DNA of 5,042 nucleotides. It comes from a virus (Duplodnaviria > Heunggongvirae > Uroviricota > Caudoviricetes). Numbering within the stretch: position 1 is the first letter of the stretch; every line of letters starts with the position of its first letter. The position numbers were made by a program, and so were the translations under genes. Of the stretch, positions 1-3,615 are shown in pieces. Location: IMG/VR virus record IMGVR_UViG_2563366822_000006. The stretch is one strand, 5' to 3'. The notes under the pieces are model-generated. The model was given only the letters and a program-made list of their open reading frames with translations, did not search any database and was not told where the DNA came from.

Positions 1-185
1 GCGCTGAAATTTCTTTTTTTCATTGGAGCACCTGTGTTGTTCTGAGGTGAGCATATCACCTCTGTTCAGGTGGCCAAATTCAGTGTGCCACTTCAGGGAT
101 TATTATCGGGTGCACTGATGCTGTATCGACAAATTATCATGACCGTACATCATATTACTCCGATAAAGCAATAGAGACACAGTAT

Positions 186-482
186 GTGAGTTCATCTGAA
201 CGTACTTCTGATGTTAGTGAGGATATCCGTCTGTATGCCCATCAAATCAAGAGCGCCATCGAAAAACAGTTCGGGGATGCGAGTAAGTATTCAGGAAAAG
301 AGTGTACACTGAGAATGCATATGGCCCCGAATGGCCTTCTACTGGAGGTTAAAAGAGAAAGTGGAGACCTCGATTTATGTCGTGAAGCGATGAATGCGAT
401 AAAGAATGCTGATATACCTGCCCCCCCTTCGCCGGAAGTATATAAAGTATTTCAAAATGGGGTGCTGGATTTTAAACCCTGA
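186..482 (+). CDS. TolA C-terminal domain (domain III)-like protein, no recognisable signal peptide; possibly a decayed or frameshifted paralog
   Basis: The 98-aa translation aligns by eye to E. coli TolA domain III (YAxQIKSAIE...GKxCTLR...APxGxLL...GDxxLC...PPSxxVYxVFxNxxLDFKP, ending in the same DFKP C-terminus) and keeps both cysteines of the TolAIII disulfide. The start is GTG (186) with only a weak Shine-Dalgarno sequence, and the in-frame upstream stretch (51-185) has no start codon. Confidence 0.6.
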   Translation: MSSSERTSDVSEDIRLYAHQIKSAIEKQFGDASKYSGKECTLRMHMAPNGLLLEVKRESGDLDLCREAMNAIKNADIPAPPSPEVYKVFQNGVLDFKP

Positions 483-524
483 TATTTATTGTTTTGTAAT
501 AAACGGTTTCGGCTTAGGTTTGTT

Positions 525-553
525 CTGACACAACTACGGCACTGAGCTAAATT
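525..553 (+). promoter_or_regulatory. Candidate sigma70 promoter for the TolA-like lipoprotein gene (-35 CTGACA, 17-bp spacer, -10 TAAATT)
   Basis: Hexamers read directly from the sequence about 80 bp upstream of the GTG at 633; the match to consensus is partial. Confidence 0.25.
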
Positions 554-632
554 TAGCGGATAGTCAGCTCTGAGCCAGTGGCGGACGTAACAACTACTAT
601 TGCTGAGATTTTAATGGATTGAGGAGCAAGAA

Positions 633-1028
633 GTGGGATTAAAGAAAATCGTTATGTTGACTTTTGGGGTCGGTTTTGTTGCGGGATGCACACCTTTACA
701 CCCTTCAGATTGCCACAAAACTACTGCTACAGGTAGTTGCAGTTCAGGACGCTGGGATGATCAGGATGAATGGGGGGCGCAAGCGCGGGGAATCAGAGCT
801 GCAATTAATGCCAAACTTGATGAGCCGCATAACTGGAAAGGGAAAAAATGCAGGTTGCATATGGAATTCTCTCAGGATGGCACGGCGTTAAAAATATCTA
901 CCAGTAACGGTGATAAAGCCTATTGCGAAGCGATAAAGTCCGCAGCTCATAAAGCCAAATTTCCGGCCTTCAACAATCCGGAAGTCTACAGAGATTTTCA
1001 GAAATCTGGCTTTGACATGCGAGGTTAG
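633..1028 (+). CDS. Predicted lipoprotein carrying a TolA domain III-like fold
   Basis: GTG start 6 nt after the Shine-Dalgarno sequence GAGGAG (621-626). The N-terminus MGLKKIVMLTFGVGFVAGC has a basic n-region, a hydrophobic h-region and the lipobox VAGC. The C-terminal ~80 aa conserve the TolAIII pattern (GKKCRL...DG.L...GD..YCEA...AK.P....PEVY.DF) including the two-cysteine pair. Confidence 0.7.
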   Translation: MGLKKIVMLTFGVGFVAGCTPLHPSDCHKTTATGSCSSGRWDDQDEWGAQARGIRAAINAKLDEPHNWKGKKCRLHMEFSQDGTALKISTSNGDKAYCEAIKSAAHKAKFPAFNNPEVYRDFQKSGFDMRG

Positions 1029-1153
1029 CTCTTCAATTACTATATCTCATTCATAGCAAACTGACAGATTTGATGATGTTCTATATACGAAACCTGTGAT
1101 GTCAAGTCTGAGCTAATACAAATAAACATAATATCAGAGAAATACATTTTATT

Positions 1154-1177
1154 AGCTCGCTACGGCGAGCTTTTTAT
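1154..1177 (+). terminator. Rho-independent terminator (stem AGCTCGC / GCGAGCT, loop TACG, then TTTTTAT)
   Basis: Perfect 7-bp GC-rich inverted repeat followed directly by a T-tract, between the TolA-like lipoprotein gene and the holin gene. It could be a moron terminator or a tR'-like late terminator. Confidence 0.6.
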
Positions 1178-1279
1178 ATTGCATCGTCTCCAGCATATAT
1201 ATCAATTAAGGCTCTGATTGATGTGTCTGGAAGCCTACACATAATAACTATGCCATCCGTTCCGTGCGGAGGTGAGGCT

Positions 1280-1495
1280 ATGAAATCCATGGACAAAATT
1301 TCAACAGGCATTGCCTACGGCACCTCCGCAGGCAGTGCTGGCTACTGGTTTTTACAGCTGCTCGATAAAGTCACGCCCTCACAGTGGGCAGCAATAGGTG
1401 TGCTGGGTAGCCTGGTATTTGGCCTGCTGACGTACCTGACAAATCTTTATTTCAAGATTAAAGAAGACAGGCGTAAGGCTGCGAGAGGAGAGTAA
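1280..1495 (+). CDS. S: Class II holin, S21-type pinholin with dual-start motif (antiholin/holin)
   Basis: The 71-aa product [71 protein letters not shown] is near-identical to my recollection of phage 21 S21 / E. coli EssD-EssQ. The Met1-Lys2-Ser3-Met4 dual start is present, with the Shine-Dalgarno sequence GGAGGTGAGG just upstream. The ORF-track start at 1223 is an in-frame artefactual extension. Confidence 0.9.
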
Positions 1496-1499
1496 TCCA

Positions 1500-1807
1500 A
1501 TGACTCAAGACTATGAACTGGTTGTGAAAGGAGTCCGTAATTTTGAGAATAAAGTTACGGTAACTGTAGCCTTACAGGACAAAGAACGCTTTGACGGTGA
1601 AATTTTTGGCCTGGATGTCGCCATGGACCGTGTTGAAGGAGCTGCGCTGGAGTTTTATGAGGCAGCAGCCAGAATGAGCGTCCGGCAAGTCTTCCTGGAA
1701 GTAGCAGAAAAATTGTCAGAAAAAGTTGAGTCTTATCTGCAGCATCAGTACTCCTTTAAGATTGAAAATCCTGCCAATAAGCACGAGCGTCCTCATCATA
1801 AATATCT

Positions 1808-1811
<4 letters not shown>
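1500..1811 (+). CDS. ydfR: YdfR-like (DUF1327) prophage protein of unknown function, inside the lysis cassette
   Basis: 103-aa ORF sitting between holin and endolysin, the same size and position as ydfR in the E. coli Qin prophage. Its ATG lies 4 nt after the holin stop and its stop overlaps the endolysin start (ATGA). Confidence 0.75.
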
Positions 1812-2835
<1,024 letters not shown>

Positions 2836-3195
2836 ATTAATATTAAATCGGATTATTTTTAGCGCTGAATGTGAAATTTAAATAAAAAGGACTCTTCCAT
2901 GAGTCAAAATCCTTGAAATCTTAAGGGTAAGATAAAAGGTCATTAGACAGAATGACACGTTTTATTAATAAATAAAGCTATTGTTTCATTCGTGTGTTTT
3001 TCTTTACAAAAGTAATCCTTGCTATGGTTGGTTAATCATGCGTTAATGGTGTTCTGGTTTGTTACAAAATTATCTGAAGCAGTCATTGTTATAATTTTAT
3101 TATTTGTACCTCTTGAGATTTCCTTGTTGGTTTTTCTCTCTGATATTTTTTTTCGGACCATTCTGCCCAAGGGCTAACTTCTTCAAAAGGTAATA
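2836..3195 (+). promoter_or_regulatory. AT-rich promoter and long 5' leader region of the cold-shock gene (CspA-family-type leader)
   Basis: A 360-bp AT-rich non-coding stretch with no ORF longer than a few codons. CspA-family genes characteristically have long 5' UTRs; a -10-like GTTAAT (3042-3047) lies 17 bp downstream of TTGCTA (3019-3024). Exact promoter and transcription start are not determinable from sequence alone. Confidence 0.35.
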
Positions 3196-3411
3196 ATGAT
3201 GTCTAACAAAATGACTGGTTTAGTGAAATGGTTTAACCCTGAAAAAGGTTTTGGTTTCATCACGCCGAAAGATGGTAGCAAAGATGTGTTTGTGCATTTC
3301 TCAGCTATTCAGAGCAACGATTTCAAAACGTTAACTGAGAATCAGGAAGTCGAATTTGGTATTGAGAACGGACCTAAAGGCCCTGCAGCTGTTCATGTAG
3401 TGGCACTTTGA
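3196..3411 (+). CDS. cspI: Cold-shock protein, CspA family (CspI-like, prophage-encoded)
   Basis: Translation [71 protein letters not shown] carries the cold-shock-domain RNP1 (KGFGFI) and RNP2 (VFVHF) motifs. It differs from my recollection of CspA, CspB and CspG and matches CspI. Shine-Dalgarno AAGG is upstream; the true start may be the second ATG (3199). Confidence 0.9.
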
Positions 3412-3615
3412 GGTAGAAAATATTACAAACCATATTCACTTTAGATGCCCGTGTTGCCATGGTTCTCAGTATAGAACATCATCTTTTGATGTTTCTGACA
3501 GAAATCCTTTCGGGGCAAAATGTATCTTTTGTAAATCAATGATGATTACATTTGATAATATTTCACAATACTTAAATGTTAGCCATCTGTCGTTAGATTT
3601 AAGAAAGTGAAAATG

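Follow-up and report, generated by a model that had tools for sequence, protein, structure and literature searches.

A mobile pair of lipoproteins with TolA's C-terminal domain in a Qin-like prophage, and their possible role as decoys of TolA ligands

Why should a prophage carry, between its antiterminator gene Q and its holin gene, two genes whose products end in the C-terminal domain (TolAIII) of the host protein TolA? The question is raised by a window of 5,042 nt (the whole stretch of DNA analysed here, IMG/VR record IMGVR_UViG_2563366822_000006), which comprises late genes of a lambdoid, Qin-like prophage from Escherichia coli or Shigella. A reading of its letters alone had pointed to adjacent open reading frames at 186-482 and 633-1028, and had proposed that an exported copy of TolAIII could act as a decoy against colicins or filamentous phages, or could weaken the tethering of the outer membrane by Tol-Pal at lysis. 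We call the genes gene 1 and gene 2, and their products ORF1 and ORF2. Both proteins prove to carry the TolAIII fold, and the reading that we prefer, to which we assign a probability of roughly 0.45, is that they would be non-energised, host-protective decoys of TolA ligands.

Fold and anchoring of the two proteins

In order, the window holds 95 nt of the insertion sequence IS911, ORF1, a 150-nt spacer, ORF2, a hairpin followed by a run of T, the lysis cassette and the cspI region. Annotations of E. coli IMT16316 and of phage mEp460_ev081 show the same arrangement without the insertion sequence, with an identity of 99.9%. The features that concern the two genes are these:

1-95, minus strand: left end of IS911
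96-482, plus strand: remnant of gene 1, namely codons 15-142 and the stop of a 142-codon gene
216-479, plus strand: TolAIII domain of gene 1, the equivalent of E. coli TolA 334-421, 59% identical
621-626, plus strand: Shine-Dalgarno sequence GAGGAG of gene 2, read directly from the sequence
633-1028, plus strand: gene 2, a 131-aa prolipoprotein with its signal peptide at 633-686 and lipobox Cys19 at 687-689
762-1025, plus strand: TolAIII domain encoded by gene 2, covering residues 44-131 and sharing 31% identity with E. coli TolA 334-421
1154-1179, plus strand: intrinsic-terminator-like hairpin (1154-1171; 7-bp stem with 5 GC pairs, loop of 4) and T run

Both proteins match the TolA C-terminal family of Pfam (PF06519, gathering score 25 bits), the frame at 186-482 with 84.1 bits (E = 8.3e-24) and the frame at 633-1028 with 54.6 bits (E = 1.3e-14), and a search of the sequences in the PDB matches both to E. 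coli TolAIII (E = 1.8e-28 for ORF1 and 5.1e-9 for ORF2). AlphaFold models built on family alignments reach a pLDDT of about 80-95 over the domain, with the stretch before it disordered in both proteins, and when the folds were compared with Foldseek the top matches were E. coli TolAIII, whose alpha/beta fold packs a three-stranded sheet against helices: intact ORF1 superposes on 2x9a_B with a TM score of 0.96 and a root-mean-square deviation (rmsd) of 0.6 A, and ORF2 on 3qdp with a TM score of 0.92 and an rmsd of 1.2 A. Pfam, PDB sequence and predicted structure agree on TolAIII-like C-terminal domains with both cysteines, as the sequence-only reading had held, and the structure comparison that it had named as able to overturn it has left it standing. 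In the alignment to TolA 334-421, identity is 52/88 for ORF1, which ends in LDFKP as TolA does, and 27/88 for ORF2; the closeness of the first protein to E. coli TolAIII, down to its DFKP terminus, and the divergence of the second had both been recognised correctly. Cysteines equivalent to C363 and C388 of TolA are present in both proteins, and these positions are nearly invariant across 44 short lipoproteins and 34 TolAs.

Neither protein has a transmembrane anchor, the N-termini being lipoprotein signals with no other hydrophobic segment beside them, and neither has the long Ala/Lys/Glu-rich domain II, only 25-35 residues that are modelled as disordered lying between the lipid-bearing cysteine and the domain. 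Matches to hidden Markov models (HMMs) of full-length TolA cover no more than about 90 positions at the end of the profile, and the scores against the full-length TolA equivalog NF007065 (107.8 bits for ORF1, 54.1 for ORF2) are both under its cutoff of 213.

A positively charged n-region, a hydrophobic core and a lipobox of the form [LVI][ASTVI][GAS]C are found in ORF2 and in the intact form of ORF1; the window copy of ORF1, whose signal is cut by IS911, does not have the full set. In the signal of gene 2 (MGLKKIVMLTFGVGFVAGC), a KK n-region and a hydrophobic core precede the lipobox VAGC, which had been noticed from the letters. PGAP starts gene 2 at ATG 654, which drops the positively charged n-region (WP_001348108.1, with which ORF2 agrees except for the choice of start codon). 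This start is probably wrong and the gene probably begins at GTG 633, because GAGGAG lies 6 nt upstream of the GTG, because the KK n-region upstream of ATG 654, conserved in the ORF2 family, is restored, and because homology to the plasmid allele of the gene begins at 603 and spans 603-1031, that is, the Shine-Dalgarno sequence and the gene. In the Lol sorting of lipoproteins an Asp at position +2 leads to retention in the inner membrane. Residue +2 is Thr in both proteins (CTP.. and CTD..), and across the aligned sequences of both families it is Thr or Ala and never Asp; since the Asp of Lol avoidance is lacking, both mature lipoproteins are predicted to be sorted to the outer membrane. The linker that follows in ORF2, CxPLHPSxCHKTTATGSCSSGRWDDQDEW (690-761, residues 20-43), is almost invariant across genera and is modelled as disordered. 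Its Cys-x8-Cys pair recurs in the related clades P0168, P0171, P0177, P0179 and P0187. A likeness of its SSGRWDDQDEW segment to the TolB box of colicin E9 (DGSGW...W) is weak and was set aside.

The sequence-only reading had treated 186-482 as an intact gene and had named a lipoprotein signal for the second protein only, which needs correction. Positions 1-95 are 98-99% identical to the annotated IS911 copies of Shigella phages Sf6 and SfII; the terminal inverted repeat of the element ends at 95, its orfA start codon lies at 23 and reads toward position 1 (read as its reverse complement, 1-23 gives the beginning of IS911 orfA, ATGAAAAAAAGAAATTTCAGCGC), and all close relatives of the locus match the window only from position 96 on. 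In the relatives that are free of the insertion, the frame of gene 1 opens 42 nt upstream of the point corresponding to window position 96, with an ATG behind a GAGGA Shine-Dalgarno sequence, and encodes a 142-aa lipoprotein (MGFRSASILTLIISGIIIGC and then TDAV..., lipobox IIGC), which is present intact in mEp460_ev081 and IMT16316. The insertion hit the part that codes for the signal peptide. The window copy has lost its initial 14 codons along with the ribosome-binding site and a promoter-like site; of the signal peptide only the tail is left, and the lipobox Cys codon (111-113) survives. From the stop at 48-50 up to the GTG at 186, direct reading finds no start codon in frame. Because its start, ribosome-binding site and promoter-like site have been removed, gene 1 is inactive in the window, and gene 2 alone could still work. 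The IS911 junction is found in none of the 5426 complete E. coli genomes surveyed, and the disrupted allele is therefore specific to the source strain; the window may derive from Shigella or from a lineage of E. coli not yet sampled. In the variants of the family, down to 65% identity, the gene 1 lipobox (I/T/A)GC is kept.

PGAP labels even the intact gene 1 as 'tolA, incomplete, missing N-terminus'. ORF1 passes the cutoff of TIGR02794 (75.6 against 59.45 bits) though it is short, and ORF2 fails it (47.2 bits); the partial-tolA label arises because a short protein exceeds that cutoff, and is an annotation artefact. The idea that ORF1 is a fragment of the host tolA was considered and rejected, the intact gene having a start, a Shine-Dalgarno sequence and a lipoprotein signal of its own and no sequence from domain II.

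Cargo slot and distribution of the genes

In K-12 Qin, ynfS, cspF, cspB and ynfU occupy the slot that separates the Q antiterminator from the holin. Its occupants in the PGAP-annotated relatives of the window are tRNA-Ile, tRNA-Arg, a DUF3927 gene and the TolAIII pair, and K-12 lacks both TolAIII genes. Pfam and PGAP confirm the position of the pair between Q and the holin, upstream of the lysis cassette, that had been assigned from the sequence. In intact relatives, beyond what is the left edge of the window (L002 4709-4961), tRNA-Ile, tRNA-Arg and the DUF3927 gene lie between a tR'-like terminator after Q and the TolAIII pair and represent further cargo. Similarity to K-12 Qin returns no earlier than some 25 nt ahead of the holin's ATG, and the TolAIII pair together with the hairpin is therefore cargo, inserted in the manner of a moron between two conserved backbone genes and absent from the related K-12 Qin. 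The hairpin at 1154-1171 is the sole site of its kind in window positions 1-1600, against about 1.1 expected in shuffled sequences, and a hairpin is found at the corresponding site in mEp460_ev081. A promoter-like sequence, TTGAGC-18-TATAAT, stands 30 nt upstream of intact ORF1 as a match to the sigma-70 consensus only (10/12), and is deleted in the window. An ORF1 variant of 65% identity likewise has terminator-like hairpins downstream. Q and the lysis genes have a GC content of 0.45-0.50 and the cargo one of 0.40-0.45, a small difference. The TolAIII pair looks like a moron and may be a self-contained unit.

Among the 5426 complete genomes, an intact ORF1 region is present in 785, 782 of them at least 99% identical, and the prophage allele of ORF2 in 782; the prophage pair thus occurs in about 14% of complete E. 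coli genomes, and some allele of ORF2 in about 23%. The two families are distributed differently. Outside E. coli and Shigella the ORF1 family is essentially absent, and its 65% variant sits between Q and the holin in other lambdoid prophages, where ORF2 does not accompany it. An ORF2 allele of 87-88% identity is carried by about 600 plasmids of E. coli and Shigella (607 plasmid records), among them pO157 and many IncI-complex and IncF plasmids. On pO157 (L016 4815-5246) the gene belongs to the leading region, with psiB, psiA and hok nearby. Further ORF2 alleles, 78-89% identical, occupy unrelated chromosomal sites outside phages: one in Enterobacter between the genes for glutathione peroxidase and RidA, one in Citrobacter beside arsRBC, and one, in a single genome, between nrdDG and defence-type genes (GmrSD/HEPN).

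In comparisons of ORF2 with the alleles of Enterobacter, Citrobacter and the third genome, dN/dS is 0.07-0.17, which indicates that ORF2, as judged from its codons, is under strong purifying selection across genera; between two ORF1 variants the ratio is 0.36. Because ORF1 and ORF2 differ in distribution, we regard them as independent modules, ORF2 being general cargo of mobile elements and not an accessory of phage lysis. An obligate two-gene system is rejected, with ORF1-type genes alone in other prophages and ORF2-type genes alone on plasmids and chromosomes. With the ORF2 family mostly plasmid-borne or at non-phage chromosomal sites, and a hairpin standing before the holin, the prophage and lysis framing of the sequence-only reading was too narrow; the spread of ORF2 over plasmids and chromosomes, together with its low dN/dS, suggests a function useful to any host rather than to the lytic cycle.

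Sequenced phages hardly contribute to this spread. A tblastn search of 50,697 phage records with ORF2 matched mEp460_ev081 alone, which carries the pair, and the idea that the pair is a common feature of sequenced lambdoid phages was rejected on that count; a fold search of BFVD, the collection of predicted viral structures, gave no significant match. The right arm of mEp460_ev081 (LR597641.1) is Qin-like, with hokD, rem, ydfU, Q, essD, ydfR, rrrQ, cspI, ynfN and gnsB, which suggests that this phage acquired the region from a cryptic prophage. The holin is named 'Phage tail fiber protein' in the annotation of mEp460_ev081.

The same data bear on whether the two genes are merely decaying, functionless remnants of a captured host tolA. 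The window copy of ORF1 is certainly inactivated by IS911, other ORF1 alleles are truncated or frameshifted, and the prophage is Qin-like, K-12 Qin being annotated as cryptic. A decaying fragment is nevertheless hard to reconcile with the start, Shine-Dalgarno sequence and lipoprotein signal of intact ORF1 and its lack of domain II sequence, with a 142-codon frame kept between alleles only 65% identical at a dN/dS of 0.36, with the near-identity (at least 99%) of the intact allele in 782 genomes, or with the selection on ORF2 across genera, and we consider decay very improbable.

The two families belong to something larger. A profile of both, searched against 1.84 billion representative proteins, gave 569 matches at E of 1e-3 or below, many of them 118-153 residues long, and 45 of 59 short representatives have a recognisable lipobox, a short linker and a TolAIII domain usually ending in ..FKNAxLDF(K/R)(P/L). 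Named members come from Serratia, Erwinia, Dryocola and Citrobacter, and short TolAIII lipoproteins are a broad class in the Enterobacterales. Per-position conservation in these short lipoproteins tracks that of true TolAs (Spearman 0.71), with beta3 among the best-kept segments. A rough neighbour-joining tree places ORF2 in a divergent clade of lipoproteins and ORF1 in a lipoprotein clade that adjoins the enterobacterial TolAs. With intact ORF1 as the query, tblastn found TolAIII-like frames on 1307 plasmid records.

The decoy reading weighed against its rivals

The preferred reading, that the proteins are decoys, starts from their build: each gene encodes a lipid anchor, a flexible linker of 25-35 residues and a free-standing TolAIII domain. 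Such a domain would be tethered under the outer membrane, where the translocation domains of colicins and the N1 domain of g3p enter the periplasm, and, having no transmembrane helix and no domain II, it could not couple to TolQR or to the proton-motive force. It would bind TolA ligands in competition with TolA through its surfaces for beta-strand augmentation, would meet incoming translocation domains first and would hold them in a dead-end complex, leaving the host tolerant. Candidate ligands are the group A colicins, the g3p of Ff/If1-type phages and possibly the N-terminus of TolB. Periplasmic TolAIII reportedly makes cells tolerant to colicins (Levengood-Freyermuth 1993).

How well the ligand-binding surfaces are kept differs between the two proteins. 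In TolAIII, alpha2 and beta3 bind the N-terminus of TolB, g3p-N1 and colicin N, colicin A binds beta2 (L375-P380, with K368, K379 and K396), and all of these contacts are made by beta-strand augmentation (PMC4339652, PMC3365938, PMC7391070). With the sites defined as in PMC4339652 and PMC3365938, ORF1 keeps most of the surface that serves g3p, colicin N and TolB, being identical at 11 of 16 positions in alpha2 and at 7 of 10 in beta3, LDFKP included, and at the colicin A site it has LLEVKR for LLDIKP and keeps K379 and K396, two of the three lysines. The affinity of TolAIII is about 1-3 uM for colicin N (PMC4339652) and weak for TolB, with a Kd of 40-200 uM (PMC7391070). Because colicin N is bound more tightly than TolB, a modest level of decoy might intercept invaders without titrating TolB or disabling Tol-Pal, as these values suggest.

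Several points weigh against the decoy reading. ORF2 matches only 4 of 16 contact positions in alpha2 and 2 of 10 in beta3 and has none of the three cation-pi lysines of the colicin A site, so the ligand of ORF2 may differ from those of TolA; these contacts, however, are largely backbone-mediated. The alleles of ORF1 have been truncated or frameshifted repeatedly (P0130, P0144, P0153 and the window itself), and ORF1 is therefore dispensable in some lineages. The promoter-like site is not conserved upstream of the 65% variant of ORF1, neither protein matches a PADLOC defence model, and a decoy that also bound TolB could be costly.

The weak contact identity of ORF2 raises a second explanation, that ORF2 in particular, whose clade parted from TolA long ago, serves a different partner, its TolAIII/TonB-like fold and Cys-x8-Cys linker binding a ligand that TolA does not bind, such as part of a conjugation or pilus apparatus or some other protein of the outer membrane, with the likeness to TolA ancestral only. 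This is consistent with 31% identity to TolAIII and mostly changed ligand-contact positions, with the almost invariant N-terminal linker of the mature protein, with the precise constraint implied by a dN/dS of 0.07-0.17, and with the placement of an ORF2-family gene in the transfer region of the IncK2/Z plasmid pSH275-2 (L018 6965-7396), where it follows the nikB relaxase gene at a distance of 68 nt and precedes trbCBA. Yet the ORF2 model retains the fold, the disulfide cysteines and the free edge strands that beta-augmentation needs. The backbone amides of D418 and K420 are what g3p and colicin N bind (PMC4339652), and ORF2 retains D418 and has no proline at the equivalents of either position. 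The gene moreover stands single in many unrelated contexts with no fixed partner gene apparent, and we think a different partner unlikely.

The decoy reading gains from genes that join TolAIII to the corresponding domain of TonB. In the lipoproteins P0181, P0230 (Citrobacter freundii WP_213354707.1) and P0247, a TonB_C domain (PF03544) is fused to TolA_C (PF06519). On a K. pneumoniae ColRNAI plasmid of 10,060 bp (NZ_CP028801.2, L015 4908-5641), the gene for a TolAIII lipoprotein overlaps by 4 nt a TonB_C gene with a Sec signal, and this pair lies about 850 bp from an operon for a colicin E3-like (cloacin-type) bacteriocin with its immunity and lysis genes. Fusion and adjacency of this kind fit a decoy because both domains are the heads of import machines that bacteriocins (group A and group B) and phages parasitise. 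The decoy idea of the sequence-only reading is strengthened by these arrangements and weakened by the few contact side chains that ORF2 keeps. A tentative generalisation, which we put forward as possible rather than probable, is that mobile elements of the Enterobacterales carry 'transducer-head decoys', consisting of the C-terminal domain from TolA, from TonB or from both and nothing else of these proteins, that would confer broad, receptor-independent tolerance, with the window genes as their prophage members. Such outer-membrane lipoproteins or periplasmic proteins would intercept Tol- and Ton-dependent bacteriocins and g3p at the inner face of the outer membrane, and their carriers would be prophages, IncF and IncI-complex plasmids, bacteriocin plasmids and small chromosomal islets.

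A third explanation turns on the lysis cassette, whose genes in the window are as follows:

1280-1495, plus strand: essD/S21-type holin with the dual start MKSM (PF04971; Pfam, and PGAP annotation of the identical region)
1500-1811, plus strand: ydfR (DUF1327; Pfam/PGAP)
1808-2341, plus strand: SAR-type lysozyme (Pfam/PGAP), with the Gly/Ala-rich N-terminal segment typical of SAR endolysins
2338-2835, plus strand: Rz with an embedded Rz1-like lipoprotein frame, lipobox LTSC (Pfam/PGAP)

Pfam identifies these genes by PF04971, PF07041, PF00959 and PF10721, and the cassette is of the phage 21 type, its first gene being the holin. Downstream of it come cspI with a cspA-type 5' thermoregulator, then ynfN, gnsB and small open reading frames. 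The thermoregulator matches Rfam RF01766 over its full length (110 bits) at 3041-3457, covering the 5' untranslated region and the start of cspI (3196-3411); around the two TolAIII genes, the 483-632 spacer included, the Rfam scan gave no RNA element.

On this third explanation the proteins would be modulators of Tol-Pal: a tethered TolAIII would bind the N-terminus of TolB (or Pal or CpoB) and damp the dissociation of TolB from Pal that TolA drives, and the looser link between outer membrane and cell wall would give more vesiculation or would help the spanins at lysis. The pair does lie directly upstream of the holin on the path of the Q-dependent late transcript, TolB shares one TolAIII site with g3p and colicin N, and within the short lipoproteins beta3 is one of the best-conserved segments. 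Export of TolAIII by itself into the periplasm, moreover, makes E. coli leak periplasmic proteins, an effect that has been put to practical use (Wan & Baneyx 1998, as applied in PMC6195910). Against modulation stand the terminator-like hairpin between the pair and the lysis genes, the residence of the ORF2 family for the most part on plasmids and at chromosomal sites and not in phages, the lack of these genes in K-12 Qin and in other lambdoid phages with the same lysis cassette, and the weak affinity of TolAIII for TolB, which would demand high expression. Modulation of Tol-Pal therefore seems to us a doubtful account of the pair, and a role specific to lysis is unlikely, because ORF2 is found mostly outside phages and the hairpin separates the pair from the holin.

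Novelty and comparison with known systems

Both window proteins fall into phrog_5772 (E about 1e-63), and the entry for PHROG 5772 reads 'unknown function'; the family name given by PGAP, 'cell envelope integrity TolA C-terminal domain-containing protein', has no mechanism or phenotype attached. Full-text searches aimed at TolA-like proteins encoded by phages, prophages and plasmids gave no functional study, in line with the first impression that this was not a characterised lambdoid moron function, and the sole published trace that we found is a passing remark on Klebsiella plasmid genes. A transcriptome paper in which a prophage gene rises 32-fold with ciprofloxacin appeared to have a link to TolA; its supplement says only 'tail fiber protein', and it was not used. 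What is new is a natural, lipid-anchored, mobile protein with TolAIII as its only domain, the TolAIII domain itself being textbook knowledge and the proteins already catalogued. The absence of both genes from K-12 may explain why they have not been tested.

Known insensitivity to colicins and filamentous phages comes from specific immunity proteins, from loss of the receptor or from tol mutations, the last two of which are costly. If the decoy reading is true, a mobile and dominant decoy of the co-receptor would be a different route, transferable and independent of the receptor, with effects on colicin competition in the gut, on the outlook for antimicrobials or delivery vehicles made from colicins and filamentous phages, and on how 'tolA' duplicates and pseudogenes are interpreted in genome annotation. 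Even if it fails, a strongly conserved TolAIII lipoprotein that faces Tol-Pal from the outer membrane would be a new handle on force transduction between TolA and TolB.

The nearest known relative is TolAIII of E. coli itself (residues about 334-421; PDB 1TOL, 1S62, 3QDP, 3QDR, 2X9A), which shares with both window proteins the Pfam family, the fold and the disulfide pair. TolA, however, has a transmembrane helix and domain II, whereas the window proteins are lipid-anchored with a short linker and are predicted to sit on the opposite, outer membrane. Artificial periplasmic TolAIII, in which a signal sequence is fused to TolAIII, is likewise an isolated, exported domain and gives an experimental precedent for a dominant-negative or decoy effect; those constructs are soluble laboratory fragments that are overproduced, whereas the window genes are natural and diverged, encode lipid-anchored proteins and are borne by mobile elements. 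Tolerance caused by the g3p of filamentous phages involves the same pair of g3p N1 and TolAIII and blocks further Tol-dependent entry, but there g3p saturates the TolA of the host, while in the decoy reading the extra TolAIII would do the inverse and saturate the TolA-binding domain of the invader. The proposed role is analogous to that of Llp of T5, Cor of phi80 and N15, and TraT of F, which are small outer-membrane lipoproteins of mobile elements that protect the host against incoming phages or DNA and, on the basis that no Pfam or PADLOC match links them, have no sequence or fold relationship to the window proteins. Llp and Cor bind FhuA, a receptor in the outer membrane. They thus block a receptor at the surface, whereas the window proteins would imitate a co-receptor in the periplasm.

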